Part shown: positions 13,824-59,874 of the stretch, one piece after another | Numbering within the stretch: position 1 is the first letter of the stretch | Layout of the letters: each line of letters begins with the position of its first letter | From: an uncultured Phycisphaerales bacterium | GTDB taxonomy: Bacteria > Planctomycetota > B15-G4 | Assembly: GCA_964537035.1 (NCBI GenBank) | Contig: CAZIAK010000013.1 | Span: 4,826 to 68,825 of the forward strand | Direction of reading: 5' to 3' | DNA length: 64,000 nt | Program-made: the position numbers and the translations under genes | Notes under the pieces: model-generated | What the model saw: only the letters and a program-made list of their open reading frames with translations | Told to the model about the DNA's origin: nothing | The model's database searches: none

Positions 13824-13958
13824 GATCGCGGCGAGTCTAGCACTCCCGGGCGATCGATCGGCTGATTGGCCCCGGCCAGTGAGTTCACCGAGGCTCTCCA
13901 AGGCTCAGCTGGGGCCGCGCTGTGCCCTGGCTTGCCCACAGCTTGCTAGGCTGCGCCC

Positions 13959-14579: not shown

Positions 14580-14587
14580 AGCGGCCG

Positions 14588-17473: not shown

Positions 17474-17510
17474 CAGTGTGCTCGGCGCCGGTCACTCTCG
17501 GCTCGGGCTG

Positions 17511-19699: not shown

Positions 19700-19706
19700 A
19701 CGAACC

Positions 19707-22436: not shown

Positions 22437-22449
22437 GGCTGAGGAGAGT

Positions 22450-23616
22450 TTATGAAACCGCACTGACAAAGACGGACTCGAGCACCTCAGCGTGGGCATT
22501 CCATGTGAATCGCGCCGCCGTCTCTGCGGCCGCCGCGCCCAGTTCTTCTCGCCGGGAGCGTTCGCTGAGCAAGTCGAGGAGTCCATCTGCCAGCGCCTGG
22601 CGGTCCTGTGGATCCACCGAGAGCACCGCCTCGCCGCCGTAGTCGGCCATGGGCGTCCCGCTCGAGGTGAGCACGGCCCGGCCACAGACCATGGCCTCGA
22701 AGACGGGCAGACCGAAGCCCTCACCGAGCGAGGGATAGGCCACCACATCGGCCTGGCGAAGCAACGCGGCCAGATCGGCCTCGCTCACGGCCCCCGCCGC
22801 GGCCACGCGCCGGCCACCCGCAGGCAAGGCCCCCAGCTGGGCCAGGCGACGCTCGAAGTCCTCGCAGCCCCAGCCCTTGGGCCCGACTAGCAAGAGCTGG
22901 GCTCCCTGGCACTGGCCTGGCGTCAGAGCGAGGAACGCCTCCACCAGGGCCGCCTGATTCTTGCGCGGCTCACGGGTGCCAGGCACCAGCACCAGCGGAC
23001 AGTCGCCGCCCCCTGTCAGGCCAGCCCCGGCGAGCACACTCTCCACCCGCGCGCGATCGTCAGGCAGGGGCAGGGCGCTCACGTGATCGCAGCCCAAGGG
23101 AGCCAGCACCAGCTGATCGGCTCGGGCGACCCCGAGGGCCAGGGCGTCGTCTGCGGTAGCTCGCGACGGCACCACGATGGCTGCCGCCCCTTGGGCGCGA
23201 CGCATCAGCCGCCGGCTCACCGTGCGCACGAAGCGCTCGCTGTGCCATCCCCGGCCCTGCATGAACAGCACGTCGTGGACCGTGAGCACCTCGGGCACGC
23301 GAGCCACCGGGGCAAACACCAGGTCGGTGTGATGAAAGACGTCGAGTGACGGCAGGAGACGTTCGACAGACAAGCCCAGAGGCGCCAGCAGCTGCTGCAG
23401 CCGAGCGGGGAAGCGACGAGGTGCCACCCCGGGCAAGCGCAGCTCTGGGCGGGGACGACGCCAGGCCAGGGCCCAGGGCACGATCTCAACCCGGCCACGC
23501 CGCCGCAGGGCAGCCAGGCTCTCCCGTGCAGCCCGCCCCATGCCGGTGGCGCCAAACAACGCCGGACGCACATCGAAGCCCACCACCACCTTGCCAGTCT
23601 CTGCAGGCTCAACCAT
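22450..23616 (-). CDS. Glycosyltransferase family 4 (GT-B)
   Basis: YPSLGEGFGLPVFEAMVCGRAVLT motif. The start overlaps the Wzx stop by 8 nt. Confidence 0.85.
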   Translation of the reverse strand: MVEPAETGKVVVGFDVRPALFGATGMGRAARESLAALRRRGRVEIVPWALAWRRPRPELRLPGVAPRRFPARLQQLLAPLGLSVERLLPSLDVFHHTDLVFAPVARVPEVLTVHDVLFMQGRGWHSERFVRTVSRRLMRRAQGAAAIVVPSRATADDALALGVARADQLVLAPLGCDHVSALPLPDDRARVESVLAGAGLTGGGDCPLVLVPGTREPRKNQAALVEAFLALTPGQCQGAQLLLVGPKGWGCEDFERRLAQLGALPAGGRRVAAAGAVSEADLAALLRQADVVAYPSLGEGFGLPVFEAMVCGRAVLTSSGTPMADYGGEAVLSVDPQDRQALADGLLDLLSERSRREELGAAAAETAARFTWNAHAEVLESVFVSAVS

Positions 23617-25075
23617 CGGGGGCGCCCTCCGTCCCCAATCTCAACGGCCAGACACCGGCGGCGGCCAGGCCCAGCAGTCCCAGGCCCACACCGATGAGCA
23701 GCTGCACCAGGGCAGGCGCGCCGGCCCAGAGCGGGCTGGCCAGCCTCTGCACGATCAGCACCCCGGCGGCACAGGCCCCTGGGCGCGACAGATCTCTCAG
23801 GGACGGCCCCACCCCCGTGAGCCGCAGCGCCACCCCCACGGCGCCCGTGAGCACCATGGCCTCGGTCATCACCGTGGTCCAGGCCGCCCCCTCGATGCCG
23901 TAGCGTGGGATGGCCCACAGGTTGGCGGCCACGTTGAAACCCGCCGCCGCCGCGGAGATGAACATCATCTTGCGCTGGTATCCCGCAGCCAGCAGCAGAT
24001 GCACATGGGGGTAGGCGCAGAACACCAGCACCACCGCCAGGGACAAGATGCCCAGGGCGTCCGCAGCCACGCCGTACTCTGGGGGATACACGATGCCGAT
24101 GACCTGGGCCCGCAGGCCTGGCACCAACGCGGTGACCATCACGCCCGCTGAGAAGAGCAACCGCAGGGTGCGCCGATAGAACGGCAGCAAGGCGGCAGGC
24201 CCCTTGGCCCACAACCGGGAGTACACCGGGAACACGACCTGGCTCACCAGCACGGGCACCATCAAGACGAAGGTCATGATGCGATAGGCCGCCGAGTAGT
24301 GGGCCACGGCGACCTCGCCCAGCAGGGGCCGGAGCATGGCCGTGTCCACGTAGAAGTAGAGCGAGGCCAGGGTCATGGAGATGCCTGCGGGCCAGGCCTG
24401 CTTCCAGAGCTGAGACCGCTGGGCTCGCGTCGCATCGAAGCGGATCGCAACCCGCCTGCGGGCCCACAGGTAGCCCAGACAGCCGGTCACCAGGGGGCCC
24501 AGCCCGAAGGCGATCAGGTAGGGAGCGGGGCCGTCCACGCCGGCGACCGCGAGCACGGCGGTGCCCATCAGCCAGGCGGTCTGGCCGGACAGCGACGCGG
24601 TGACAACCCAGCGGAAGGCCATGTCCACGTGGAAGATCGCGCTGGCGCCTCCCGGGGCGTGGAAGAACAGGTGCAGGGCGGCCAGGGAGAGCAGCCCGAA
24701 GCGCATCCCCCAACCCTCAAACAGGAACGCCAGGGCCACCAGCAGGGCCACACCGAGCGCGGCGATGAAGGCCTTGATCAAGACCAGGGTGCCGATGAGC
24801 TGGCCCGCGTGGGCCCGGTCGCGGCTGGCATCACGAATGACGATGGTGCCCAGGCCGAAGTCGAGCACGTTGTTGAGCAGCTGATACAGGGTCAGGTACC
24901 AGGCGAAGATGCCGAAGTTGACCTCGCCCAGCTGACGGGGCAGCAGCACGGCCGTGATGACGAAGGACAGCGTCGAGGTGTAGAGGCGGCCGGCGATCTG
25001 TCCCGCCGCGTTGAGGCCAACCTGCCGGGAGAGACTCACCTCGTCGCTCCTGGCCAGCCCACCGAGCGCCACCAC
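23609..25075 (-). CDS. Oligosaccharide flippase (Wzx/PST family)
   Basis: About 12-14 TM helices with the PST-type N-terminus (VGLNAAGQIAGRLYTSTLSFVITAVLLPRQLGEVNFGIF). First gene of the GT4 operon. GTG start. Confidence 0.8.
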   Translation of the reverse strand: MVALGGLARSDEVSLSRQVGLNAAGQIAGRLYTSTLSFVITAVLLPRQLGEVNFGIFAWYLTLYQLLNNVLDFGLGTIVIRDASRDRAHAGQLIGTLVLIKAFIAALGVALLVALAFLFEGWGMRFGLLSLAALHLFFHAPGGASAIFHVDMAFRWVVTASLSGQTAWLMGTAVLAVAGVDGPAPYLIAFGLGPLVTGCLGYLWARRRVAIRFDATRAQRSQLWKQAWPAGISMTLASLYFYVDTAMLRPLLGEVAVAHYSAAYRIMTFVLMVPVLVSQVVFPVYSRLWAKGPAALLPFYRRTLRLLFSAGVMVTALVPGLRAQVIGIVYPPEYGVAADALGILSLAVVLVFCAYPHVHLLLAAGYQRKMMFISAAAAGFNVAANLWAIPRYGIEGAAWTTVMTEAMVLTGAVGVALRLTGVGPSLRDLSRPGACAAGVLIVQRLASPLWAGAPALVQLLIGVGLGLLGLAAAGVWPLRLGTEGAPDG

Positions 25076-36016: not shown

Positions 36017-37597
36017 CTAGAGCTGGAAGTGGGCCAGAATGCCATTGGACATGGAGCGCCCCGCGACCGCACCACCGTCGACGATGACGAACTGCACGTA
36101 GACATCAAACGGGCCGCCGCCACCAGCCACCGAACCGACCTGCACCTCACCGTTGCTGTCCGTGGTGAAAGGCCCGATGAGGAAGTCTGGGGCCGGCACC
36201 AGGATGCCACCGGAGAACGGCGCGAAGACCGAGTTGAGCGAGAAGACCAGGAATGCCGGAGCAGAGGGCAGGGCGTCGGTCAGGTTGAAGTCAGCGGTAC
36301 CGCCCGTGGACAGATCGCCACAGGCTTCGAGGGCAGGCTCCAGGCCGCCCGTACCCGCCAGAGCGTTGCCCAGGTCGGTGGCCACGGAGACGCAGCCCCC
36401 GGCCAGGGGCAGCTGAAAGTCAGCGATCACCGGGCGGTGGTCAGAGGCGATGCCCGACGCCAACTGGTAGTTGATAAAGAAGCCCGACAGCTCAGGAGGT
36501 TCGAGGCCAGAGGGCACCGGCGTCGAGTTGAAGACGATCGAGTGGCGCAGGGTGGCGATGCTGTCCTGCCAGGAGATGTAGTCGAGCTTGCTGGACGACT
36601 GGGTGCTGATGTTCCCGGTGAAAAACTCGGCAGAGGCATCGTAGGTCATGTCGGAACCATCCCTGTCCGTCCCGTCAGTTCCGCCCGTCACAGCCGCCCT
36701 CGTGATCCAGCTAGCTGGGCCCTTGCCAAAGACCCCTTCGTGCTCGTTCCAGTCGCCACCGGCCATGACCACCGTGTCGGCGGAGACCAGCGTGGTAGCG
36801 GCGGGGCTCAAGATCTTGCTGTTGGGGTCGGCGGCACCTCCTCCGAGACCGTTGAACATGGCGTCGATGTAGTAGGCGATGTTCTGGCCCGCCGCCACGC
36901 GCTGGTCGTGGTCGCTGCCGCCACCGCCAGCCTTCAGGTGGCTGTTGCCGATGACCAGGTCGCCCGTGTAGGTGCTGTCGGGAAGGTCAATCTCTGTGTG
37001 CATGAAGCCACGGATGCCGCCGTTGACACCGGGAGAGTAGAGGTCGCCCAACTGCAAGAAGTCGTTCAGCTGGTCGACGCCGTCACCGTTGAGGTCGGCG
37101 AAGGGGTAGCGGCTCATGATCACGTTGCGGTTGAAGCCATCGGTGATGCCGCTGACGAAGACGAAAGGTAGATCGTAGGACGGTGCGTAGAGCTGCACGT
37201 AGGCAGCCACCGCCGCGCCCCCGTTGAAGGGGTCGTTGCCGCCGTGCATGAACAGATCGAGCACGGTCTCCATGGTGCTCACGGAGTCAGCGCCGGATCC
37301 CGTCCCGTTACCCGAGTTGTCCGCGCACTCTTGGAGCAGCAGGACGTCGGGCTGGAAGGACGCCACGATCCGCGCCAGGGCCTCCCAGTTGGTCAGCCCC
37401 GCTGCCTTGGCGTTGGTCGAGCACAGACCGTCCTCGACGTTCCAGGTCATGACCCTTAGGTCGCTCGGATCGGTCTTGGTCCAGTCGCCAGCGGCCGGGT
37501 TCCATTGTGCCGCTGCGGGGAGGCTGACCAGACAAAGTGCGAGAGCGGCTGTCACGTAGCGCCACGACGCACGACGGAAGAACGAGAGAGACATCAT
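36017..37597 (-). CDS. Secreted endonuclease/exonuclease/phosphatase (EEP) family protein carrying the shared C-terminal module
   Basis: Signal peptide, EEP N-terminal motif LRVMTWNVEDG and C-terminal signature SDHRPVIADF. The last 88-115 aa match the tails of the CDSs at 43002-45326 and 57790-59874. Confidence 0.85.
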   Translation of the reverse strand: MMSLSFFRRASWRYVTAALALCLVSLPAAAQWNPAAGDWTKTDPSDLRVMTWNVEDGLCSTNAKAAGLTNWEALARIVASFQPDVLLLQECADNSGNGTGSGADSVSTMETVLDLFMHGGNDPFNGGAAVAAYVQLYAPSYDLPFVFVSGITDGFNRNVIMSRYPFADLNGDGVDQLNDFLQLGDLYSPGVNGGIRGFMHTEIDLPDSTYTGDLVIGNSHLKAGGGGSDHDQRVAAGQNIAYYIDAMFNGLGGGAADPNSKILSPAATTLVSADTVVMAGGDWNEHEGVFGKGPASWITRAAVTGGTDGTDRDGSDMTYDASAEFFTGNISTQSSSKLDYISWQDSIATLRHSIVFNSTPVPSGLEPPELSGFFINYQLASGIASDHRPVIADFQLPLAGGCVSVATDLGNALAGTGGLEPALEACGDLSTGGTADFNLTDALPSAPAFLVFSLNSVFAPFSGGILVPAPDFLIGPFTTDSNGEVQVGSVAGGGGPFDVYVQFVIVDGGAVAGRSMSNGILAHFQL

Positions 37598-37809: not shown

Positions 37810-40800
37810 TCAGTAGCGGGCCCGCAAGCGCACGAAGTCCACCTGTGGACGGGCCGAGTCGGGGCCGAAAGGAGCCAGCTGAGGCTGGGCGGAGAGGTCG
37901 AATTCGACCTGGAAACGCACCAGGGGGTAGCCATCCAGGTCGGTCAGGTCAGAGACCCAGGCCGTGGTGGTGGTCGTATCCGGTACGTCAGAACCAGCCA
38001 CGATCGGGTAGGCCCCCTGGAACAACAGCCGCACGTGGGCGTTGTCGCTGAGCACGTCCTCCAGGCCCAACTCGTCTTCAGGCGAGTCGACCTTGATGTC
38101 GTTGTACGGCGGGGCGTTGGGCCCAGGACCCAGCCCAGGATCATCGAACCCGGCGTCGATGACGTACCGAGCGGGCACGGGGGCTGCGGGCACCGCACCA
38201 CCGACCCGGACCCGGCCCTCTTCTCCGGCTGGCACAGCGCCCAGGGCCGCCACGTTGGACGTGCCGTGAATGGGCTCGAAGAACGGCGGCGTGACACCGC
38301 CAGAGCGCTGCCGCAGGGTCACTCCATTGAAGTTCAACCAGACCGAGACTCCGCGGCTCGAGGCACCGAAGGGAGGGGGCACCCGATCCACAGGGATCAC
38401 CGGCAGGCGATCGACCAGGTTGGTGGGCTCGAAGACGTCCTGCCCGTTGATGTTCGTCTTGAACGGCGTGCCGTCTGGCTCCACCAGCATGATCGAGAAC
38501 GGAATCTGCTGGTCCTTGTAGGTCGTCCCCGGAGTGTCCGGAAAATCAGGGTCTGTGGGCGGGTTGTTCTGCTCGAAGAACGAGCTGTTGTAGCCGTTGT
38601 ATGTCTCCATGACCTTGAACGGCTCAGGCTCAAGAACAACGGGCACCCCCGACGAATCTGCGCTGGCCATCATGGTCGTGTCGAACCAGGTCTGCCCCGA
38701 GCCTGCGGGATACTCGTTGCTGCTCGAGGGACCACTGGCCGTGCCGTCGCTGGGAATCATCGGCGGATAGCTGCCGTTGAGGATGAAGTAGCGATCAGCC
38801 AGCGGCGAGCCCACGCTGCCGGGCTCCGGGTCGTAGAACCTGTAGTGGAGCATGTCGATGTAGCGCAACTCGACGGGCAGGTTGTTCGGCGCCAGGAAGT
38901 CGTTGTGCTCGGACTGCAAGAACTTGTTGTCCCCCGTCCATTGGCCCAGCTTGGCAATGGCCCTCTGGCGAGCAAAGAGGAACGCTCCCTGTTCGATGTC
39001 GGCGACGCCATCGTCGCCGCCCTCCTGAAGTTGGACGAGCCCGAAGCCCCCCTGTCCACCGTCGCTTCTGGTCACCTCGTAGGTGAACGCCGACAGGCTG
39101 CCCGTACCGCCCGCAGCTGTGCGGGCATCTCGGCCGAAGCCACCAGACACTTCGATCGCTGCGCCGAGAGATCCGTCCTTGTCGGCGTAGCCGGCCGACC
39201 GGTGGCCCTGATCCGATTCGACGAGGATCTTTGCACCCGATTGGAGCACGACCGCGCCGCCGCTACCGCCGCCACCACCACCAGAGAAGGCGCTGGTCTT
39301 GACCACTTCGCCGCCACCGCCGTGACCACCGATGGCGTTGATCCGCCCGCTGCGGCCCACGACGATGTCGCCGAAGGAACGGAGCAAGACACTACCGCCG
39401 CCACCACCACCGCCGCCGCCCTTGGCGTCATACAGGGTGGGCGAGACCTGCACACCCAGCACCAACGCCGGGTAGTAGGGAGGCACGGGAAGCCCCGCGC
39501 CCAGGGCGTTGGTGCTCCAGATCGTGTGACGCATCGAGTCGATCCGGCTGCCACCGCCACCACCACCCTGTCCACCGATCAAGACCGACACCTCGCCGCC
39601 TGCCCCGATGAAGTCGTTGGAGTTGTCCCCGTCCTTGAACACGAGGTCGCCGCCTGGCGCGCCCGGCTGCTTGGCCGAGTGGCTGGCAACGGTGCCCTCC
39701 ATGTAGACGCACTGAATGGGCTTGTTGGGGAGCAGACCCGCGGCCACGTTCAGCTCGTTGCCGTAGAGAGCGTCGTTGATCTTGTTGTTCGTCAGGCACC
39801 GGCTGAAGGGGAACCAACTGCTGCTGCTCTCCACCTTGTAGACCCCCGCCCCTTCGTGAGACGTCTGCCCTCTGAAGTAGAAGCTGCCGCCGCCACCCCC
39901 GGGTGGCCTGTGGTGCTCATTGTTGCCAGAGTCCGAGACTTTGGGGAACCCACCACCTGCTGGGTCGTAGCCCAGCGTGCACAGCCCGCCCCAACCGCCG
40001 ACCGGCTGGAAGGTCACAGCGCCAGAAGGCTGCACCACCGGGCCCAACCCTCGGGCGCCCCGCTCTGGTGTGACGTACTGATCGATCGAGCCCGGGCCCT
40101 TGGGGTCGAACAGGGTCGGGTGGCTGTCGCCGCCCCGCCCACCGCCGGGTCCGCCGGGCCCACCTGGCACTGCCAGGAAGCCAGAATTGAAGGTGTCATC
40201 ACCCAGTCCATTGGTACCCGCCACGTCGAGCAAACCATGGATCTCGATGCGCCCGGTGGCCGTGATCTGCAGTGGCCGCGTGCCCTTGGCGACGACTCTC
40301 ACACCTTCGGGGATGATGAAATCCCTGAAAGTGAAGTGCCCACCGTTCACGACGACCTGCTGAGTCACGCCAGGAGTCTCTCCGCCCGGCAGGGGGAAGA
40401 CCTGCTGGTCAGTGTCCAGGAGCACGAAGTCGTAGAAGGCGCCCTTGAGGTTGTAGGACGTCTCGGGCGATCCCTTGGTGGTCTGGTGGCGGCTATGCGC
40501 GACCGTGGGGTTGAAAGCAGGAACGGGCACGGGCATGAAGTCGCCGAGCTGAACCGACTCGTCCACCCCCACCGAGGCCCGCAGGCCGCCCGTGGGCGTA
40601 CCACCCACTCCGGTCCCGGCCCATACAGCCGGCTGGCTGAGGCTCAGGGGCGTCGCCGATTCGAAGGCCTTGGTGAGAAACGTCTCCAAGAACACGTCGT
40701 CGATGAAAGGCCCAGGGTCATCGGTGGGTTCGGCTGTGCTGATGCGCAGCAGCTCGCGAGCACCCATGGGAGGCGCGGGCACCGACGCCATGCCGTCGTT

Positions 40801-42756
40801 GAAACCGTTCACGCCTACCAACGACGTGAAGATGTTGCGTTGCATCACCAAGAGCTCGGCGCCGATGGGCAACACGCCTCTGGGTTCGAGATGCACCACA
40901 GCGCCCGCGCTGTCATTCGTCGCGAGCTGGACATCCAAACCGAGGTTCATGGTGCCCACGGCGATGGCCCGGGGCTGGCCGGTGGAGATCAGCCCTTCCG
41001 ATCCGAGCAGACCCAGGTCGAGATCGATGAGGTCGACTCGTCCCGTGCTCCGATCGAGCGCCAGCAGCTGCCGAGGCGCCGTGAACACAGCGTCGATGTA
41101 GTCTCCCGGAAGGTTCATCACCACGTCTTCGACCAGGCCGCTGAAGAGCCCGTCACTGGCGGCGAACTGACCGTCCCCGTCGAGGTCGATGGGCTCCAGG
41201 CGAATCAGCGACGGGAAGGCGCCAGCGTTCAGCACGGCCAGGGCGTAGAGATGGCCGGAGGGCGCCGCGAGCAGATCGCGAATGTCGAGCAACGACGCCA
41301 CGCCGCCGGGGGTCAGGGGGGCACTGTGGAAGAGCGGTCCTGGTCCGTCCGCGACGGACAATCCGAGCAGGAGCGGCGCTCCGGGGGCGCCCTGCCCAGG
41401 TGCTGGACGGGAACGCACGACGCTGGGTGCCAGCTCTCGAATGGTGCGGTCCTCCCCATCGAAGGCCAGCAAGCGCCCGTCGAGGAGGGTGGTCAGGCCA
41501 ACCAGTTGGTCGTGGCCCGTATCGAGGGCGTCGACCTGACCCACCAACGCAGAGGCCGCTGGCAGGGCAAACGAGGGGTCTCCCAGCAGGTGGTCAATCA
41601 CCGTCAACTGCTGATTGCCCGCAGCGGGGTCCAGCAAGGCGAACAGCAGCGACGGGTCTTTTCCTGGGGACAGACTCGAAGGGACACCCGGAAGCAGCGC
41701 ACCGTTCTTGGCCACCAGGCCGTCCGGTCCGTCGTGCAAGAAGATGTCAGCACCGTCCGCAGCCGGGACAGCCAACGGCACCGGATCGAGCCCAACCAGC
41801 GCTTCGAAGGGCAGGTGCGAACCGAACGTGTCCTGGGCCACCTGCTGGGCCACGATCAAGCGGGTCGCCCGTGTCGACAGGAAGAACGTCGGATCGGAGA
41901 AGCCGTCTCCATCAAGATCGCTACCGATCAGGTTGGCCGTGGTGGGTGCCACCGGCTGATCATAGGTCAGCATGATGTCCGACGGACCGGGCGGATAGCC
42001 TGGCAGGCCCATGTCCGTGATGGAGGCACCAAACGTCGCCGGCTGAAAACTGTCGTTGCCGTCCGCAGGCACGCTGGTCAGAAGCGCCGGCGGAGCTCCT
42101 GCTCCCACGCCCTTTGGATAGTAGGCGGCCTCGTTGGACGTCGTGCCGAACAGCACCTCACCGCCAGGGCCCTGGAGGTTGATGATCTTGGACCCCACCG
42201 CCGTGGAGACCATGGCGTGGTAGGTACTCGCTGGCAGCAGGCCGGGGATGGCGGCTGCCGGCGCGGAGAGGTTTACCTGCAGCGGAGCGGTAGGCACGAA
42301 GGGTCTGAACTCGACCTCGTAGGTGCCAGCCGTCTCATCGACGATCAGGACGTAGTCGCCCTTGGCCAGAATCATCGGGTTCACTGCAGAGGCGTTCGCG
42401 TCAGCCGTGACCTCTGCCGGCGTGGTGAAGACCGGCAGGTTGGTGGACAGGAAAGGCCCCGAGGGCACACCGTCGAAACGGAAGACTATGGTCAGGTCAA
42501 GCGACGCACCCACGGTGGGTGGTGTCGCGGCGCCATCCTCGACCGGCGGCGTGGTCGTCGTCCCGAGCAGGGCCGATTTGAAGGCAAACCCAAGAAACTG
42601 CACCGCGTCGTCGGGCTCTGGCGCAGGCCCACCTCCCACAACGCCAGCACCACCACCGCCTCCACCGCCGCCACCGCCGCCACAGCCCACGAGCAGCAGG
42701 GCGAGCGCGAGACAGAAGGAACGACCGGGAACAACGGATAGCCACGACAGGCGCAT
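37810..42756 (-). CDS. Giant (1648 aa) surface lipoprotein with a poly-Gly tether and glycine-rich beta-helix-like repeats
   Basis: Start trimmed to MRLSWL..LALALLLVGCGGGGGGGGGGG (lipobox, AGGAG 7 nt upstream). Internal runs GGQGGGGGGS, KGGGGGGGGGSVLL and SGGGGGGSGGAVVL alternate with hydrophobic strands. No catalytic motif recognised. Confidence 0.8.
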   Translation of the reverse strand: MRLSWLSVVPGRSFCLALALLLVGCGGGGGGGGGGGAGVVGGGPAPEPDDAVQFLGFAFKSALLGTTTTPPVEDGAATPPTVGASLDLTIVFRFDGVPSGPFLSTNLPVFTTPAEVTADANASAVNPMILAKGDYVLIVDETAGTYEVEFRPFVPTAPLQVNLSAPAAAIPGLLPASTYHAMVSTAVGSKIINLQGPGGEVLFGTTSNEAAYYPKGVGAGAPPALLTSVPADGNDSFQPATFGASITDMGLPGYPPGPSDIMLTYDQPVAPTTANLIGSDLDGDGFSDPTFFLSTRATRLIVAQQVAQDTFGSHLPFEALVGLDPVPLAVPAADGADIFLHDGPDGLVAKNGALLPGVPSSLSPGKDPSLLFALLDPAAGNQQLTVIDHLLGDPSFALPAASALVGQVDALDTGHDQLVGLTTLLDGRLLAFDGEDRTIRELAPSVVRSRPAPGQGAPGAPLLLGLSVADGPGPLFHSAPLTPGGVASLLDIRDLLAAPSGHLYALAVLNAGAFPSLIRLEPIDLDGDGQFAASDGLFSGLVEDVVMNLPGDYIDAVFTAPRQLLALDRSTGRVDLIDLDLGLLGSEGLISTGQPRAIAVGTMNLGLDVQLATNDSAGAVVHLEPRGVLPIGAELLVMQRNIFTSLVGVNGFNDGMASVPAPPMGARELLRISTAEPTDDPGPFIDDVFLETFLTKAFESATPLSLSQPAVWAGTGVGGTPTGGLRASVGVDESVQLGDFMPVPVPAFNPTVAHSRHQTTKGSPETSYNLKGAFYDFVLLDTDQQVFPLPGGETPGVTQQVVVNGGHFTFRDFIIPEGVRVVAKGTRPLQITATGRIEIHGLLDVAGTNGLGDDTFNSGFLAVPGGPGGPGGGRGGDSHPTLFDPKGPGSIDQYVTPERGARGLGPVVQPSGAVTFQPVGGWGGLCTLGYDPAGGGFPKVSDSGNNEHHRPPGGGGGSFYFRGQTSHEGAGVYKVESSSSWFPFSRCLTNNKINDALYGNELNVAAGLLPNKPIQCVYMEGTVASHSAKQPGAPGGDLVFKDGDNSNDFIGAGGEVSVLIGGQGGGGGGSRIDSMRHTIWSTNALGAGLPVPPYYPALVLGVQVSPTLYDAKGGGGGGGGGSVLLRSFGDIVVGRSGRINAIGGHGGGGEVVKTSAFSGGGGGGSGGAVVLQSGAKILVESDQGHRSAGYADKDGSLGAAIEVSGGFGRDARTAAGGTGSLSAFTYEVTRSDGGQGGFGLVQLQEGGDDGVADIEQGAFLFARQRAIAKLGQWTGDNKFLQSEHNDFLAPNNLPVELRYIDMLHYRFYDPEPGSVGSPLADRYFILNGSYPPMIPSDGTASGPSSSNEYPAGSGQTWFDTTMMASADSSGVPVVLEPEPFKVMETYNGYNSSFFEQNNPPTDPDFPDTPGTTYKDQQIPFSIMLVEPDGTPFKTNINGQDVFEPTNLVDRLPVIPVDRVPPPFGASSRGVSVWLNFNGVTLRQRSGGVTPPFFEPIHGTSNVAALGAVPAGEEGRVRVGGAVPAAPVPARYVIDAGFDDPGLGPGPNAPPYNDIKVDSPEDELGLEDVLSDNAHVRLLFQGAYPIVAGSDVPDTTTTTAWVSDLTDLDGYPLVRFQVEFDLSAQPQLAPFGPDSARPQVDFVRLRARY

Positions 42757-42971
42757 CGTTGGGCTCCTGAGATGTCCTGTGAAACCAAGCCGGTTGGCGA
42801 GACGGCCGAAGTCAACGGCGGCCACCGTGGGCTGCCGACTGCCAGGCCGATGATCCGGCCCGAAACGCAAGCCAGCCCCGGGTGATCATCCGATCTCCCG
42901 GGGCCGGTGTCGAGGGTCTGGCGTCCCGAACCGACCGATCACCGATGTATCGACGATCGGCCGGCTCGGGG

Positions 42972-43001: not shown

Positions 43002-45326
43002 TCAGGGGGTCGTGCTCTTCACGCCATTGGTGGCGCTGAAGTTCCCGAGAATCGCCGGACCCGTGATCCAGGCCTGCCAGTAGATGTCGAAACAGCTCGG
43101 GAGCCCGGCCGGCCAGGTCGCCGACACGACGAACTCGCCAGCGAAGGTCGGGATCGCCGGCAGGATGAAGTCCGGACTCGGCACCAGGGTGCCGAACTTG
43201 AAGGGCGAGAAGATCCCGTTGAAGCCCGCGATCATGAAGAAGATCTCACCAGGCTGCATGTCGGTCAGGCTGACAGTGTAGTCGTCGCCAGCGGCACCTG
43301 AACCCGTGAAGCCCAGACGGGGCTCAACGAAGCCGGGGCCGGGGCCCGCCTTGGCGTTGTCCAGGTTCTCCCACTCAGCGACGCCAACGTAGAGCAGCAC
43401 GTTGTAGTCCTCGTCTGAGCCAAGAGCAGCACAGTCGTCGAAGGAGCCGTCACCATCCGTGTCGTAGATGATCGACGCAGAGATGACCACGCCACCCATG
43501 GCCCGGTTGTCGTTGGTATCCAGGGCAGAGTTGTTCATCGCGCCATGAGCGACGTCGCTCATGTTGCCCGACCAGCTCGCGCCCGACGACACCGAGTTGC
43601 TGTCGGCGATGCCCATGAACGTGATCAGGTAATCGAGATCACTGTTCTCTCCGTGGAAGATGTCGCCGGTCTTGAAGACCAGGTCGAGCTCGTAGGAGAA
43701 GGTGGCCGGATCATAGATGGCGCGGACCAAGCCCGTGGCATCGTCGCCCAGTGGCATGGGATCGTTGGTGTGCAACGAAGCCAGGAAGTACACGTTGCCC
43801 ACCGAGTCGAACATGGGAGCCGAGAAGGAGGGCCCAAGAGGCACGCCACCGGTGAGGGTGTTCAGCGGGATCAGGTTTCCGATGGGAGTCCCACCGGGAC
43901 CGTCCAGGATCTCCTTGCCCGTGACGCCGTCGTTCCAGCCAGCCAGGGTCCAGGTCTGGGCGCCGGTGACAGCATCGGTCTTGCACACGCCCACAGCGTT
44001 GACGGGCCAGTCAGAACCGCCATCGAGGGGGTGATCAAAGACAGCAGCAACGAGCAGGTCACCGTTCTGGTCGACGCGCACCGAAGCCTGGGAGTTGCCA
44101 CCTTGGAAGGCCGTCTGGCTGTGGTAGTGATCGAACTCAAGGGTGCCAGCCGGGCCCAGCGTGGTGAAGCCGTCGCTGTTGTCGGTGATGCTCGCAGGCA
44201 GCTGGCAGGTGGCCGTGCCGGTGACGCCACCGTTGGCGTCGAGACCCCACAAGGCGATGTGGTCCTTCATGCCTGAGACCGCGTCTTCGCCGATGGTGCT
44301 ACCGATGCCGGCCGTGCTGTTCAGCGTGCCGCCGAAGTTGTCGGAGTTGTAGCCCTGCACACCGCGGGTGCCGCTGAGGACAGCCGAGATGAACGCGCCA
44401 GTGGCGTTGACACTACCCGCTTCACCGCGCACGAACTGCGTGAGGAAGTTGGTGCCCAGGTAGAAGTCAGCGTTGTTGGTGTTGAGCGCCGGGGGCAGGT
44501 TGTTCGGCGTGGTGTGCACATCGGCCGAGTTGATCACGTAGTGGCCCAAAGCGCCCAGATCCTTCTGACCTACCGCGTCATCGCTGATCACGTTGAGCAC
44601 GGCGCCGTTACGGGCGGTGGTGGACACACTGAAGATGTTGTTGCCCGGGAGAACGGTCAGACCGCCGCCACCCGTGGCACCAAAACCGTCGGCGCGGAAG
44701 AAGATCGAGCCCTCTTCGTTCACCGAGCCAATGCCCAGCGCTGCGAGGTTGCTGGCCGCGTTGCCACCGTTGGTGGCAGCCATGACCTTGCTCACGTACA
44801 GACGACCAGGGTTGCCCGGATCGAAGTTGACCGTGGCACCGATCAGGCCGGTGTAGCTGGACAGGGCGTCGGTGGTGCCGAACTCGGCCATGACCACACC
44901 GAACTGGTTCATGTCACAGGGTGCGGAGACAGTGCCGGGGGCCGTGTGCACCGCAGGGTCGTTGTTCACACCAGAGCCGGCGGTCTTCCAGACCTGGTAG
45001 CTCTTCGACGAGGTGGTGCCGACCTTCTGCAGGCGGCTGATGCCTTGGGCCGACAGCAGGCTGGCGTTGAAAGCGGTGCTCGACTTGCTCGACTTGAGCA
45101 GGGGAGCGATGCCGTAGGTCACACCCCAGCGGGTCTCGAAGGGGTTCAGATCGACGACGAAGTCATCGGTCTGCTCCGATCCGTTGGTGGCAGTAGCGTC
45201 ATCCCAGGGAGTGGTGGCGTCACCGCCGGAGCAGGTCGTCAGGGCGACGCTGTCCTGAGCAGTGGCCGCAGGGGCGAGGAGAGCACCCGCCGCGAGAAGC
45301 GCGATGGAACGAAGACTCGGTGACAT
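43002..45326 (-). CDS. Secreted protein (774 aa), unknown function, carrying the shared C-terminal module
   Basis: Start trimmed to MSPSLRSIALLAAGALLAPAATAQD (GAGGA 8 nt upstream). Rich in G/T/S/N/D. The last 88 aa align with the EEP and FG-GAP tails (PFKFGTLVPSPDF...). Confidence 0.75.
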   Translation of the reverse strand: MSPSLRSIALLAAGALLAPAATAQDSVALTTCSGGDATTPWDDATATNGSEQTDDFVVDLNPFETRWGVTYGIAPLLKSSKSSTAFNASLLSAQGISRLQKVGTTSSKSYQVWKTAGSGVNNDPAVHTAPGTVSAPCDMNQFGVVMAEFGTTDALSSYTGLIGATVNFDPGNPGRLYVSKVMAATNGGNAASNLAALGIGSVNEEGSIFFRADGFGATGGGGLTVLPGNNIFSVSTTARNGAVLNVISDDAVGQKDLGALGHYVINSADVHTTPNNLPPALNTNNADFYLGTNFLTQFVRGEAGSVNATGAFISAVLSGTRGVQGYNSDNFGGTLNSTAGIGSTIGEDAVSGMKDHIALWGLDANGGVTGTATCQLPASITDNSDGFTTLGPAGTLEFDHYHSQTAFQGGNSQASVRVDQNGDLLVAAVFDHPLDGGSDWPVNAVGVCKTDAVTGAQTWTLAGWNDGVTGKEILDGPGGTPIGNLIPLNTLTGGVPLGPSFSAPMFDSVGNVYFLASLHTNDPMPLGDDATGLVRAIYDPATFSYELDLVFKTGDIFHGENSDLDYLITFMGIADSNSVSSGASWSGNMSDVAHGAMNNSALDTNDNRAMGGVVISASIIYDTDGDGSFDDCAALGSDEDYNVLLYVGVAEWENLDNAKAGPGPGFVEPRLGFTGSGAAGDDYTVSLTDMQPGEIFFMIAGFNGIFSPFKFGTLVPSPDFILPAIPTFAGEFVVSATWPAGLPSCFDIYWQAWITGPAILGNFSATNGVKSTTP

Positions 45327-50182: not shown

Positions 50183-53056
50183 CTACCACTCTCCGGGAGG
50201 AGAGGCTCCCAAGCCCGGCCCCAGGACGACGGCGTTGCCCAGCAGCCGCGCGCCGCTCATGAACTGTCCCCTGAAACCGGGGACCGCTGAGAAGAGGATG
50301 ACCTGCCCGGCGCCCACACGCTCTACTGTCAGCCAGGCAGAGTCGGCCAACCGACCCCGGGCCTCTGGCCAGAGCAAACCCGAGAGCCGCAGCGACTCTT
50401 CGCCTGCCAGGCGCACGGCGGTGGTCACGGGCGGGCGGGCCAAGAGCACGTGACTGCCAGCCACCAGGACGGGCAGCTCGTCTTCGCACCCAGCAGTGAG
50501 CCAGGAGTGGTCATTGACCACTCCACGAGCGATCACCCCTGCAGGTGAGAAGCGCCGCTCCCAGCTGTCTTGCCGAGACTGGTCGGGGTCGGTGGTGACC
50601 TGCGCCAGCGCTGCGTCAGTCTGCTCAGCGGCCTGGTCTTCAGCGATCGCCTCGCTGCTCTCATCTGCGCTGGCGGCGGGCTCCGTCGAGTCGGTTGAGT
50701 CGCCCCAGAGATCCGCCAGATCGATCTGGATCTCACGGGCATCTGCTTCGCGCTGAGCGGCCACGGCGAAGGGCTCCAGGTCTTCGATGGCGTCGCGGCG
50801 GAGTGTGACAGAGCTGAGGCCAGGCTCCATGCCCGTGACGGCCACGGCCGCCGAGTCACAGGCGATGAGCGTGCCCCCGTCCCTCACCCAGTCAGAGAGG
50901 GAGTCGCCGAAGCGGGACAGCAGCCCGCTCAAGCCGCCCGGCGGCAGGATCAAGACGTTGTAGCGGCGCAGATCGATCCACTGGGTGGCCTGGGCGTCGA
51001 GAAACGACACGGGTACACCGAGGCGTTGATCGAGCACGTGCCAAAGGTGACCGAAGGTGTCCGTGCGCACGGGGTCATTGCTGATCATGGCCACCCGAGG
51101 GCGGGTCAGCATGCCGAAGTGTCCGCCGCCCAGATCTGCGCCCCCACCCTGGGCTCGGCCGCCATAGACGGCGAAGGCCGTGACGCCGCTGTGCTGAGCG
51201 GCTGCCGCCACCGCCGTCCTCAGGTCACCGTCGTTGTCTGCCCGGCGCAGCACCACGGAGCCCCGAGCGAAGGGGCGCTGATCCCCGTCGAAGGCCTCGT
51301 CGGCGACCACCGCAACCAGCCCCGCCTCCATGGCGGCCACGGCGAAGGTCAGGCAGCGATCGTCCCCTCCGTCGACCACCCAGGCCACGGGCTCGGCGTC
51401 GCCCGTAGCTTCTACGAGCTGGCCCACCGCCGCTGGCAGCGCACCTAGCTGCAGACCTGAGAGTTTTGCAGGGGCATCACACCAGAGCGCGTCCAGATCG
51501 AAGAGCAGGGGCAACGACCAGGCCGTGGCGTCGTACAGGTTGGTGCCTTCGCCTCGCTCCAGGTCTTCTCGCTCCTTGAGCAAGAAAGTCTCCTCCAGCC
51601 GCACGTCGAAAGACAGATAGCTCTTCACCATCGACCCGAACGGCTGGGCGGCGGGGATCAACAGGCTGCCCGCGGGCAGCTCCAGCTGCTCATGCCGTTC
51701 TCCCAGAGCGCCCGTGCTGTGGGTCACGGACAGCGCCTCGTCGATGCGATACACCCGGATGTGCTGATCGAGCAGCAAGGACAGCAGATCCCGTTCGCGA
51801 GCAGGGTGGCGGCCGGGGCGCAACACGAACATGCGCTCATTGCCTGGAGTCCCAGGATCGATGGCCGCTCTCTTGTGGGCCAGGAAATCAGCCAGCACCT
51901 CACGCCGATGATCCGCCAGCGTGTTCAGGTTGGCCATGGACGCCAGGGCCTGGTGGCGCACCGTATCGCGGTAGGTGACCACCTGACCAGCCAGGTTGCG
52001 CAGGGGGAAGCCCGAGATGCCTGCCTGCTCGTAGAGCATGCCCACGGCGCCACTCAGCGACCCCCAGGCGTCGGAGTAGAACGGCCCCCAACCGTCGGCC
52101 CACTCCCGGGTGTAGTAGCTCCAGCCCTGCTCGTCGAACGCGGCCCCATGATCGGCAGCAAAGACCCGCTGCCAGCTGTCCAGGGTCGCCGGCAAGTAGG
52201 GGTTGTGGGGATCGTTCTGGGGATAGAACAGAAACGTGTCCAGGGGCCCCATCTCGTGGGCGTCCACGAAGAGCTGGGGCGGCAGGTCTCGGGCCACCTT
52301 CCAGCGGCCCCGGGTCTCGGGGTGCACGCCGGTCATCCAGTCTCGGTTCAGATCGAACAGGTAGTGGTTGCCACGGCCGAAGGGCCAGCGACCGCGCTGC
52401 ATGGCGTCCACATCAAGGTTGGTCACTCGCCCACTCATCTGCTCGATCTGGGAGACGATACGCTCGCGGCCGTCCGGGTTCATGACCGGATCCATGACGA
52501 TGATCAGCTCGTCGAGCAACCGCGCCACGCCTGGCCCCCGGTCGGCGACGAGGTGATGGGCCACTGCGAGTGAGGCGTCCGCGCCGGACAGCTCGTCGCC
52601 GTGAATCGAGTAGCCCATCCAGGCCACGGCGGGCAACTCGTCGAGCAGCGCTTCGGCGGCCGCAGCATCGAGACCGACGGGGTCGACCAGCCGCGCGAAG
52701 TCAGCGCGAATGCGATCCAGCCGGGCATGGTTCTCAGGGGACGTGATCACCGCCGCCAGCAGGGAGCGCCCCTCGTGGCTCTTGGAGTGCACGGACAGGC
52801 TCAACCGGGGCGACGACTCCTGCCACAGCTCGAAGCAGCGCACGATCTCGTCGTAGCGAGCCAGGCGCGTGCCGTGGCGTTGGCTCAGCACCTGCTCCGG
52901 CGTGGGGATGGCCGGGTCGTGGTCAGCCCCGTCGAAGAACGGCACATCGTCCGCGAGGAAGAGCGGATCACCGAAGCGTAGGGGCGTCGTCGCCTGGCCC
53001 AGACAGCAAGCAGCCGACGAAGCGATGACGATGAGAGTGAGCAGGATCTGCAGCAT
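50183..53056 (-). CDS. M14-family zinc carboxypeptidase with a large C-terminal extension
   Basis: Zn-binding HxxE (YSIHGDELSG) and the M14 N-terminal context (HSKSHEGRSLL..ITSPEN). Signal peptide MLQILLTLIVIASSAACC. Start trimmed to the ATG at 53056. Confidence 0.8.
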   Translation of the reverse strand: MLQILLTLIVIASSAACCLGQATTPLRFGDPLFLADDVPFFDGADHDPAIPTPEQVLSQRHGTRLARYDEIVRCFELWQESSPRLSLSVHSKSHEGRSLLAAVITSPENHARLDRIRADFARLVDPVGLDAAAAEALLDELPAVAWMGYSIHGDELSGADASLAVAHHLVADRGPGVARLLDELIIVMDPVMNPDGRERIVSQIEQMSGRVTNLDVDAMQRGRWPFGRGNHYLFDLNRDWMTGVHPETRGRWKVARDLPPQLFVDAHEMGPLDTFLFYPQNDPHNPYLPATLDSWQRVFAADHGAAFDEQGWSYYTREWADGWGPFYSDAWGSLSGAVGMLYEQAGISGFPLRNLAGQVVTYRDTVRHQALASMANLNTLADHRREVLADFLAHKRAAIDPGTPGNERMFVLRPGRHPARERDLLSLLLDQHIRVYRIDEALSVTHSTGALGERHEQLELPAGSLLIPAAQPFGSMVKSYLSFDVRLEETFLLKEREDLERGEGTNLYDATAWSLPLLFDLDALWCDAPAKLSGLQLGALPAAVGQLVEATGDAEPVAWVVDGGDDRCLTFAVAAMEAGLVAVVADEAFDGDQRPFARGSVVLRRADNDGDLRTAVAAAAQHSGVTAFAVYGGRAQGGGADLGGGHFGMLTRPRVAMISNDPVRTDTFGHLWHVLDQRLGVPVSFLDAQATQWIDLRRYNVLILPPGGLSGLLSRFGDSLSDWVRDGGTLIACDSAAVAVTGMEPGLSSVTLRRDAIEDLEPFAVAAQREADAREIQIDLADLWGDSTDSTEPAASADESSEAIAEDQAAEQTDAALAQVTTDPDQSRQDSWERRFSPAGVIARGVVNDHSWLTAGCEDELPVLVAGSHVLLARPPVTTAVRLAGEESLRLSGLLWPEARGRLADSAWLTVERVGAGQVILFSAVPGFRGQFMSGARLLGNAVVLGPGLGASPPGEW

Positions 53057-53132
53057 GGCGAGCGGGGGCACGAGGGCCCGTGATGAAGGGGGACAGGGGG
53101 CCGCGATCATAACCACGGCGGAGGGGCTCAGC

Positions 53133-57623: not shown

Positions 57624-57728
57624 GGCAACCTCAAAGGTGACAAGAGAAGGGATCCCCAAAGCAGTCTATCAGCAGCACAAATCGCTGCCCGCCCCCCTCG
57701 AGCCCGGTGCCTCCAGGAGATCCCACGC

Positions 57729-57789: not shown

Positions 57790-59874
57790 TCAAGGCGCCG
57801 TCAACTGGACAGCATTGCTGAGACTGGCCCCGCTGCTAGCCGTGCCGTCGACCACGCCGACCTGATTCCAAAGCTGGACTCCGGACGGCAAGGCCGTCGG
57901 CCAAATCAGATCAAGCCACCAGGAACCCGCGGGGTCGGTCGGCACCACGATGGAGAACACAATGGGGACGGTGTGCAACCAGCCACCCTTGAAGGGTGTG
58001 GGAGTACTGGACAGTGACACGAACAGCAGGGACACAGCGTTCGGCGCGCCGTCCCGAAACGAGACGCTGAGAGTAGAGCCACCGCTCAGGTCACCGAACA
58101 TCAACAGGTCGGGATGGCCGGCCACTCCGGGCGTTCCGGAGCCGACGGTCTCGATCACGGTGACGCCAGCGGAGGTCTGTACGTAGCCCTGCCACGCGGT
58201 CACAAACGTGTTCCCCCCTTCGTCGCTGCCCTCGACGTACCAGGCGATGCTGCCGTTCACGCCCCCGGGTATGGTGGCCTGAAACTGACTGCCCCGCTGG
58301 CTGCGCATGGGCGAGCGTACCGGCAGGCCACCATCGACGGTGTAGACGAGGTCGACGTCGTATCGGCGGATAGTGCGTTGGGGAGAGTTGTCCCGCAACT
58401 GCACGCGCAGGGGCGTATCGCTGCCGTCGTTCTTGTCAGGCTGCGCCGTGAGCAAGTAGACCGACGGCGCGTGGGTATCAGGCACGCCGAGAACGTTTTC
58501 CCACAGCCTGTTCTGCTGATTGCCGTCGTTGCCCAGCACCAGATCAGGGTCACCGTCGCCGTCCAGGTCGCCCGACTCCACCGCGTCCGTGGTGCCGCCA
58601 TTTCCAGAGGTCGGAGTCTCGAACCAGCTGGCCTGAGACCCGCCGGAAACGGTGCCGGTGCGGTGTAGCTGCACGTCGAGGCCCGGCTGGTCCGCGAGCG
58701 AACTCTGGTAGAGCCAGTTCGTCCCAGAGAAGTTGCCGCTGAACACGTCAAGGTCGCCGTCGCCATCGAAATCGAGGACATCGACCTCCTCTTCATCCAG
58801 GTTCGGGTCGCCCAAGATCGCGCCCCCGGCCACCGCGAACCGACCCGTGCCGTCGTTGACGAGCAACCGCTCCTGAAAGCCCGAGTAGTTGTTCATCCAG
58901 GCGTCGTAGTCGCCGTCGCCGTCATAGTCGGCCAGTTCGACCTCATAGTTGCTGTTGCCAGAGAGCCCCGCGCCCTGGGCAAGCAGCGCCCCATGGGTAA
59001 CGTCGGTGAACGGATCGCCCGGCCACACCATCGCCTGCACATCGAGGTCGTTGCGGAAGACCCGGGCCTGGCTGTCGCGGCTGGCGACGAAGATGTCGAG
59101 ATCGAAGTCGGCGTCGAGGTCGGCGAGATCCACGTCCATGACGTGCATCTTGGTGTCCGCGGCTGGGTCTGCCCAGGGCCAGAGTTCGTCAAACGTGCCT
59201 GTGCCGTCGTTCAGGAAGACGCGGCTGTCGTAGGCGCCATTGATGTTCGGTCCGTACGTGCTTGAGAAGAGGTCGGGGTCCCCATCCAGATCGAGGTCGC
59301 CGAACGAGCAGTCGCAGGGGAAGTCGCGAAAGGGACCGTGGTCGCCACCGAAGATCTGCTGCGACGCAGGCACTCCCAGAAGATCGCCCCAGAAGTCGTC
59401 GGTATGCTCGGCGAAGAAGCCCACCGAACCGAGCTGCATGCCCCCCTGATTCGAATAGGCACGACTGACGCCCCCGCCGTTCGACGTGTTCCCCTCATTT
59501 GTAAAGAACAGGTCGAGGTCGCCATCTCCGTCGTAGTCCACAAACTCGAGGTCGCGGCTACGGTCGACAGGATGGCCAGCGAATCGCGTGACCGTTTCAT
59601 CCACGAAGCTGCCCAGCACACCTCCCTGCACTCCACCCTGGTTGATGAAGATGCTGTTGGCCTGGGGCGCATACAAGCCGTTGGCCACAGCCACGTCCAG
59701 GTCGCCATCGTGGTCGGCGTCAGCAATGTCGATGCCGCCAGTGCGCCCCCCACCAAAGGCGCTCACCGCCGTAGGAAAATTACGTCCAGGCTGCAGGTCA
59801 ACAAGCTGCGCCGCCCCAGGCTCCGCAAGAAGCAGCACAAAGACCGCCGACAGATGAAGTCTAGACACGAACAC
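57790..59874 (-). CDS. Secreted FG-GAP repeat (integrin-alpha-like 7-blade propeller) protein carrying the shared C-terminal module
   Basis: Signal peptide and seven Ca-binding-type repeats (DADHDGDLDVAVAN, DYDGDGDLDLFFTN, DLDLDGDPDLFSS, DLDADFDLDIFVAS, DYDGDGDYDAWMNN, DFDGDGDLDVFSGN, DLDGDGDPDLVLGN). The last 89 aa align with the EEP and 774-aa tails. GTG start with GGAGG upstream. Confidence 0.85.
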   Translation of the reverse strand: MFVSRLHLSAVFVLLLAEPGAAQLVDLQPGRNFPTAVSAFGGGRTGGIDIADADHDGDLDVAVANGLYAPQANSIFINQGGVQGGVLGSFVDETVTRFAGHPVDRSRDLEFVDYDGDGDLDLFFTNEGNTSNGGGVSRAYSNQGGMQLGSVGFFAEHTDDFWGDLLGVPASQQIFGGDHGPFRDFPCDCSFGDLDLDGDPDLFSSTYGPNINGAYDSRVFLNDGTGTFDELWPWADPAADTKMHVMDVDLADLDADFDLDIFVASRDSQARVFRNDLDVQAMVWPGDPFTDVTHGALLAQGAGLSGNSNYEVELADYDGDGDYDAWMNNYSGFQERLLVNDGTGRFAVAGGAILGDPNLDEEEVDVLDFDGDGDLDVFSGNFSGTNWLYQSSLADQPGLDVQLHRTGTVSGGSQASWFETPTSGNGGTTDAVESGDLDGDGDPDLVLGNDGNQQNRLWENVLGVPDTHAPSVYLLTAQPDKNDGSDTPLRVQLRDNSPQRTIRRYDVDLVYTVDGGLPVRSPMRSQRGSQFQATIPGGVNGSIAWYVEGSDEGGNTFVTAWQGYVQTSAGVTVIETVGSGTPGVAGHPDLLMFGDLSGGSTLSVSFRDGAPNAVSLLFVSLSSTPTPFKGGWLHTVPIVFSIVVPTDPAGSWWLDLIWPTALPSGVQLWNQVGVVDGTASSGASLSNAVQLTAP

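Follow-up and report, generated by a model that had tools for sequence, protein, structure and literature searches.

Three secreted proteins with unrelated N-terminal parts end in the same domain in a 64 kb stretch of DNA from an uncultured Phycisphaerales bacterium of the phylum Planctomycetota (assembly GCA_964537035.1, contig CAZIAK010000013.1, positions 4,826 to 68,825 of the forward strand; all 64,000 nucleotides are hereafter called the window). This C-terminal module is an autonomously folding, lineage-specific, immunoglobulin (Ig)-like beta-sandwich of about 125 residues, and it constitutes a new family outside every described family that was searched. We tentatively regard it, with a probability of roughly 0.45, as a lineage-specific C-terminal address or docking domain that may hold exported proteins at the cell surface.

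Three secreted proteins share a C-terminal domain

The final ~125 residues of the three proteins, an endonuclease/exonuclease/phosphatase (EEP) protein, a 774-aa protein and an FG-GAP beta-propeller protein (Table 1), could be aligned with 31-34% identity and 19 invariant columns. BLASTP comparisons of tail against tail gave E-values of 3e-15, 9e-12 and 1e-8, far beyond chance, and the N-terminal parts of the same proteins showed no mutual similarity (best E 0.19). An earlier note on this DNA, made from the sequence alone, had described a common tail on three proteins with unrelated N-terminal domains, and both parts of that description hold. The tails do not, on the other hand, align without gaps from an [LF]xD motif to the end, as the note had also claimed; one or two indels of 1-2 residues are required. 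A further ~27 residues upstream, which it had listed as an additional match (G.G..G..P.L...G.L..G), do match, but they are no add-on: they form strands 1 and 2 of the AlphaFold model and are integral to the same fold, so that the unit is one domain of ~125 residues. When the tail profile was run against the six-frame open reading frames (ORFs) of the window, three copies and no fourth were found.

All three proteins start with a signal peptide, in agreement with the earlier note; these were judged by eye from the translations. The EEP protein matched Pfam Exo_endo_phos (E 8.5e-6) and the propeller protein FG-GAP_3 (E 1.9e-23) and FG-GAP (E 1.1e-10), while the 774-aa protein had no Pfam or NCBIfam match over its length. 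Owing to the high G+C content of the window (67.6%), numerous long shadow ORFs overlap the three module genes; the codon-position G+C marks the minus-strand frames as genuine. The 526-aa EEP and 774-aa products are moreover identical to gene calls in public collections, and the start of the latter is backed by such an identical call.

A large family almost always at the extreme C-terminus

The similarity survives a profile search and grows to a large family. HMMER, run exhaustively against 1.84 billion cluster representatives (50%-identity clusters), returned 6,613 proteins at E <= 1e-3 and 4,099 at E <= 1e-10, with the consensus W.DLG.GLAG..G.P.L.G.G.L..G....L.L..A.P.A.A.LV.GLS.L.APFKGG.LVP.PD.L...L.TD..G.L.L...WP.G.PSG...Y.Q.WI.D..AP.G.AASNAL..TTP. 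A genome scan with the peptide APFKGGTLV identified 86 loci, nearly all in uncultured Planctomycetota metagenome-assembled genomes (MAGs), a single MAG contributing up to 20 of them. Copies of the module were absent from IMG/VR viruses.

The position of the module was assessed in the 151 best representatives and in a set of 80 Planctomycetota MAG loci (1.3 Mb), which were picked for containing the module. In 148 of the 151 representatives the module ended at most one residue from the C-terminus, and each protein carried a single copy. The 80 loci contained 170 copies, 168 of them with the stop codon in view, and in 165 of these 168 the module ended within 6 residues of the stop. The extreme C-terminal position seen in the three window proteins is thus kept in ~98% of cases. 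The last residue is Pro in 73-76% of modules. The host ORFs are large (median 609 aa), and away from the seed matches the loci contain 5-10 modules per 100 kb, compared with 3 in 64 kb in the window.

Some proteins that are 83-90% identical to the window proteins (P0268, P0286, P0173) are labelled "Pseudohongiellaceae bacterium" (Gammaproteobacteria) at NCBI. Further near-identical relatives, more distant ones and nearly all MAGs with the module are labelled Planctomycetota. The gammaproteobacterial label is probably a binning or classification error, since the gene content (kinase-FGE fusions, FG-GAP proteins and the module) matches that of the Planctomycetota MAGs.

Fold and absence from described families

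With an alignment of 6 sequences AlphaFold2 modeled the module at a pLDDT of 79, and with 88 sequences at a pLDDT of 90.1 and a pTM of 0.84. The model predicts a compact beta-sandwich of 8-9 strands, with the final strand reaching the C-terminus. Foldseek searches of the PDB with two models retrieved generic Ig-like or cupredoxin-like sandwiches, e.g. NPC2, PmoD and PKD, none of them with E < 1e-3 or a TM-score above ~0.5.

The module was not matched by Pfam-A (2025 copy) or NCBIfam (release 20) in the three window proteins, nor was it in 89 full-length relatives. When the tails were searched in isolation and with relaxed thresholds there was still no match in Pfam at E <= 10 or in NCBIfam at E <= 1, and the module profile retrieved nothing from all PDB sequences. 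The tails have no terminal transmembrane helix and no PEP or LPXTG motif. The impression of the earlier note, that they correspond to no known sorting tag, therefore also applies to known domains in these collections.

The EEP-type modules (~36320-36400 of the window, and orthologues) contain two Cys (GGC...EAC; TC...VC in P0002), located at the ends of strands 1 and 2, and their placement hints at a disulfide peculiar to this subfamily. In many other members there is one Cys, 4-6 residues ahead of the conserved W.DLG.

Passengers and export signals

The proteins that carry the module are highly diverse. Their passengers include FG-GAP, beta-helix, SBBP, PKD, Peptidase_C25, PQQ dehydrogenase, lytic polysaccharide monooxygenase (LPMO), RCC1 propellers and lectins, and NCBIfam searches added choice-of-anchor C, choice-of-anchor Q, the NxxGxxAF choice-of-anchor repeat, HAF repeats and delta-60 repeats. 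According to their NCBIfam descriptions, choice-of-anchor families are defined by C-terminal sorting or anchoring signals that differ across lineages; a definition of the concept was not found in published choice-of-anchor papers. Since such families are among the passengers, the module fills the slot that is occupied by known sorting signals elsewhere.

As called with a crude predictor, signal peptides were present in 92 of 125 module hosts in the loci (74%) compared with 174 of 419 neighbour genes (42%), an enrichment with an odds ratio of 3.9 (p = 2.7e-10). We also considered whether the hosts are lipoproteins; a lipobox-like motif was seen in just 2 of 96, and the idea was dropped.

EEP orthologues exchange their C-terminal tails

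A search with only the EEP passenger yielded 120 close relatives (at least 55% identity), all from Planctomycetota-type MAGs. Their catalytic domains all stop at an SDH.P motif, and beyond this point the tails differ (Table 1). A conserved secreted EEP enzyme has accordingly exchanged its C-terminal address repeatedly within the phylum. The module is the tail of 40 orthologues. The tails ending in Gly-Cys pass the cut-offs of both Pfam Dockerin_1 and NF041540 ("GC-type dockerin domain-anchored protein"), scoring 39-57 bits against a cut-off of 29 for the latter. Neither tails of this type nor the Cys-containing tails described below occur in the window or in the 1.3 Mb of module-rich loci. For the dockerin-like tails this fits a replacement of address domains between lineages, and the pattern suggests that each lineage runs its own address system.

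Two of the other tails are cousins of the module. Comparison of the FCP-end tail with the module by hhalign gave a probability of 88-95% (E 3e-6 to 2.9e-8), and comparison of the FCP-end with the W-end tail 98.6% (E 7.5e-16). Judged from these profile comparisons, the FCP-end tail is a distant homologue of the module, and the module is thus one branch of a wider, new C-terminal superfamily; no Pfam or NCBIfam model exists for this superfamily. The cousins (e.g. P0293, P0297, P0345, P0355) share the terminal position and the EEP passenger with the module, but they differ in having conserved Cys, a Cys-rich N-terminal extension and an FCP or W end, and they were not detected by the module profile at 1e-3 and had no Pfam or NCBIfam match. 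Homology of the module with the TNCVS-end tail, or with a ~120-aa Ig-like tail that some EEP orthologues carry, found no support (hhalign probability < 1%). The extension-less orthologues (P0304, P0344, P0371, P0376, P0382) have a short Gly/Pro-rich tail of ~30 residues with Pro as the last residue.

Genes in the neighbourhood of the module

The 778 genes from the 80 loci were clustered, and one recurrent family without the module emerged, a fusion of a Ser/Thr kinase with an FGE-sulfatase domain. It has 22 members, is present in 20 of the 80 loci and often adjoins module genes. The window likewise encodes a 981-aa Ser/Thr protein kinase with a C-terminal FGE-sulfatase (SUMF1-like) domain (14528-17473, plus strand).

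Among the module-bearing proteins is a C25 peptidase (P0056, with homologues in loci L001, L004 and L035) that weakly resembles PorU, the sortase of the type IX secretion system (T9SS). The match covers only the C25 catalytic core and reaches 44 bits compared with a cut-off of 420. Synteny is not conserved around the genes that combine this peptidase with the module, and the contig of P0056 is too short for gene context.

A surface-polysaccharide cluster is located at 7483-25075 of the window, with a Wzy_C/O-antigen-ligase-like protein with TPRs, a PMT_2 glycosyltransferase, two GT4 glycosyltransferases and a Polysacc_synt flippase. Speculatively, a surface glycan that this cluster might supply could be a receptor for the module.

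The remaining neighbours are all encoded on the minus strand. Between the EEP and 774-aa genes there is a 1686-aa ORF (37810-42870) that starts like a lipoprotein (LLLVGCGGGGGGGGGG) and contains long runs of Gly; it has neither a Pfam match nor the module. The FG-GAP/module gene is directly followed downstream by a gene (56112-57659) for a 515-aa protein that combines FG-GAP repeats with an LbR_Ice_bind-type beta-roll and likewise lacks the module. An M14 zinc carboxypeptidase domain is found in a 1019-aa protein (50183-53242), which is of note solely because ~75% of the modules end in Pro, a residue that is poorly removed by many carboxypeptidases.

Table 1. Module copies, host genes and signal peptides of the window, tails of the EEP orthologues, and unusual module copies in the 80 loci.
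Feature	Position or number	Strand	Basis
Module copy 1, last 127 codons before the stop	36020..36400	-	alignments, profile envelope to the last residue, AlphaFold
Module copy 2, 129 aa, ends ...NGVKSTTP	43005..43391	-	alignment, profile, BLASTP
Module copy 3, 127 aa, ends ...NAVQLTAP	57793..58173	-	alignment, profile, BLASTP
Gene, 526-aa secreted EEP protein, module copy 1	36017..37597	-	ORF; Pfam
Gene, 774-aa secreted protein, module copy 2	43002..45326	-	ORF
Gene, 694-aa secreted FG-GAP beta-propeller protein, module copy 3, GTG start	57790..59874	-	ORF; Pfam
Signal peptide, EEP protein, ~30 aa, ...LPAAAQ/W, MMSLSFFRRASWRYVTAALALCLVSLPAAAQ	37508..37597	-	inspection of translation
Signal peptide, 774-aa protein, MSPSLRSIALLAAGALLAPAATAQ	45255..45326	-	inspection of translation
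Signal peptide, FG-GAP protein, MFVSRLHLSAVFVLLLAEPGAAQ	59806..59874	-	inspection of translation
EEP tail: module	40 orthologues
EEP tail: duplicated D.N.DG repeat of 60-70 aa, Gly-Cys end	about 23
EEP tail: Fn3-like domain and D.N.DG repeat ending in Gly-Cys	about 13
EEP tail: ~150 aa, Cys-containing, ends W.FQ.WYRD...FNLSD.L.V.FCP (FCP-end)	9
EEP tail: ~200 aa, ends ...YYQ.WYRN...N.TN.L.I.W (W-end)	4
EEP tail: TNCVS end, a TIG domain ahead of it in three	4
EEP tail: no extension, ~30 aa past SDH.P	5
ORF with an internal module copy, then in frame an unidentified domain	L019 566-2224
ORF with an internal module copy, then in frame a metallo-beta-lactamase-like region	L027 9620-11137
ORF with an internal module copy, then in frame ~1000 aa of FG-GAP-like repeats	L058 6772-10677
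Signal peptide and module alone (at least two proteins)	L038 10378-10803; L036 961-1434

Discussion

The interpretation of the tail as a sorting or anchoring tag, which the earlier note had put forward, is supported by the terminal position of the module, the signal peptides of its hosts, the diversity of the passengers and the exchange of tails among EEP orthologues, and it is from these properties that a function is inferred. In the reading that we favour, the hosts would be exported by Sec by means of signal peptides of the signal peptidase I type without a lipobox. The C-terminal module would then bind a common receptor in the envelope, which could be a protein or a surface glycan, and hundreds of differing enzymes, propellers and adhesin-like proteins would thereby be retained at the surface. 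Surface localisation, the receptor and retention of the module after export are inferred parts of this scheme.

Docking is favoured for three reasons. In EEP orthologues the module is replaced by a binding module of the dockerin type, some proteins consist of nothing but a signal peptide and the module, and three copies are internal. Dockerins share this last behaviour, which an export signal read at a free C-terminus should not show. Taken together, the module-only proteins and the internal copies point to a binding function that may reside in the module itself.

The GC-type dockerin (NF041540), which occurs in Phycisphaerae and other Planctomycetota, is a close parallel in use. It occupies the same slot as the module, at the extreme C-terminus after the EEP domain, and like the module it is found as a single copy on signal-peptide proteins of Planctomycetota. 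The two are nevertheless different in structure, the GC-type dockerin being a 60-70-aa pair of EF-hand-like, Ca-binding repeats with a Gly-Cys end and the module a sandwich of 125 aa, usually with Thr-Thr-Pro at its end. A consensus-like sequence of the module hit 0 families in NCBIfam, NF041540 included, and no match to PF00404 was found at a Pfam E <= 10. The type I dockerins of cellulosomes (PF00404), which bind cohesins, follow the same logic as a single, mostly C-terminal docking module that is spread over many different secreted proteins, with occasional internal or stand-alone copies, but they have another fold and no sequence match to the module, and the passengers of the module are not mainly carbohydrate-active. 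A cohesin-like receptor for the module was not identified.

Several observations weigh against docking at the surface. The window and the loci revealed neither a receptor nor a scaffold or processing enzyme, and the partner gene that the earlier note had proposed to look for was likewise found neither in the window nor by clustering the neighbourhoods of the 80 loci. The kinase-FGE fusion was considered as module machinery and set aside, as it was judged to be a generic expanded family, probably a generic expansion in the lineage. The near-absolute terminal position and the conserved final Pro would be explained equally well if a translocon or sortase recognised a free C-terminus. The function of the GC-type dockerin rests on the name of the NCBIfam entry, for which no published experiments were found, and the literature on C-terminal sorting in Planctomycetota contained no paper on the module. 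The density of 5-10 modules per 100 kb implies hundreds per genome, an extrapolation from loci that were selected for the module. The 3 internal copies among 168 and the few proteins that consist of a signal peptide and the module alone, which were used above in favour of binding, are at the same time the main evidence against the reading; the internal copies are apparent fusions, and an artefact of assembly or read-through is possible.

An alternative that we hold to be possible but unlikely is that the module is a secretion signal for a dedicated system of outer-membrane translocation and attachment analogous to the T9SS. It would then be recognised in the periplasm by a translocon that takes the cargo across the outer membrane, and a sortase-like peptidase would remove it, perhaps attaching the cargo to a glycolipid at the surface. 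The ~98% terminal position, the conserved last strand and the final Pro are in line with this, as are the single copy per protein, the huge and diverse set of cargos with signal peptides and the great abundance of the module within a restricted lineage. The module-bearing C25 peptidase family, with its weak resemblance to PorU, could be added, in view of the fact that PorU itself bears a C-terminal domain in T9SS. More loosely than the dockerins, the T9SS C-terminal domain also resembles the module: it is a beta-sandwich that closes a wide range of Sec-exported proteins, is present many times in each genome and has passengers that overlap with those of the module (choice-of-anchor families, C25 peptidase). 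Solved T9SS C-terminal domains are seven-stranded, Ig-like sandwiches, and the model of the module has 8-9 strands. The T9SS domain is however shorter, at 70-100 aa as opposed to ~125 aa, and T9SS belongs to the Bacteroidota/FCB group, whereas the module is found in Planctomycetota and has rare internal and stand-alone copies, which are awkward for a pure export signal. The T9SS models (TIGR04183/PF18962 Por_Secre_tail and TIGR04131) did not match the window proteins, the 89 relatives or the tails, and no T9SS C-terminal domain was among the top 50 Foldseek matches in the PDB, the best TM-score being <= 0.5. The PorU resemblance stays far below its cut-off and is limited to the catalytic core, Pfam searches of selected genes from the window and the loci turned up no machinery, be it T9SS-like or of another kind, and the alternative EEP tail is a dockerin-type binding module and not a known secretion signal. 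A broader form of this alternative, to which we likewise give a low likelihood, is that the module tags cargo for an undescribed system of outer-membrane secretion and attachment in an uncultured Planctomycetota lineage. Such a system would parallel T9SS with unrelated parts and have several hundred cargos per genome, the C25 peptidase possibly being its sortase, and the Cys-containing cousins and the GC-type dockerin would mark sister systems in neighbouring lineages.

The shorter C-terminal signals of other bacteria (PEP-CTERM/exosortase, LPXTG, GlyGly-CTERM and MYXO-CTERM) resemble the module as tags at the C-terminus of choice-of-anchor proteins with signal peptides. In ~25-35 aa they combine a motif with a transmembrane helix and a basic tail, whereas the module is a folded domain of 125 aa. 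It ends in a beta-strand and T-T-P, with no hydrophobic helix or basic cluster as in PEP-CTERM (TIGR02595), and the LPXTG motif was absent from the three window proteins, which had no NCBIfam match of that type.

It is rather improbable that the module is a ligand-binding domain similar to carbohydrate-binding modules (CBMs) or lectins, directing enzymes and adhesins to an external polymer and not to the surface of the cell itself. A beta-sandwich is a common fold among CBMs, several aromatic and polar residues of the module (W, K, D, Q, W, D, N) are conserved, one member (P0152) is fused to an LPMO, and stand-alone and rare internal copies occur. On the other hand, the single copy at the very end of the protein is never repeated in tandem, many passengers have nothing to do with carbohydrates (EEP nuclease/phosphatase, FG-GAP propellers, C25 peptidase), and the density of ~5-10 per 100 kb is at odds with such a role. 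Orthologues exchange the module for an anchoring-type dockerin and not for known CBMs. No Pfam CBM matched the module, and the CBM-like and Ig-like sandwiches retrieved by Foldseek had TM-scores <= 0.5 and E >= 5e-3. A C-terminal pro-domain or intramolecular chaperone resembling PPC, which would aid folding or block activity until its removal, is very improbable: it would suit a C-terminal, compact beta-sandwich-type domain (PPC domains are of this type) on secreted hydrolases, but the passengers are mostly non-enzymatic repeat proteins, proteins without a passenger exist, PF04151 was not matched at a Pfam E <= 10, and a folding chaperone would not be expected to occur in identical form on hundreds of unrelated folds. 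What makes both of these roles less likely is that the module occurs once and strictly at the terminus, that it sits on passengers unrelated to carbohydrates and that it is exchanged for other tails in the pattern described above.

How Planctomycetota bring their very large secretomes to, or across, the outer membrane is poorly understood. A tag that can be defined by a profile, and that marks thousands of proteins of which none is annotated for it in Pfam, NCBIfam or the PDB, would identify a great many "hypothetical proteins" as cargo that is secreted or located at the surface, and it offers a handle for locating the receptor or machinery. The tails of the EEP orthologues, which range from the module to its Cys-containing cousins, the GC-type dockerin and no extension at all, constitute a natural experiment on the replacement of surface-targeting systems. 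Should the tag turn out to define a new secretion system, its importance would extend well beyond this lineage of Planctomycetota.

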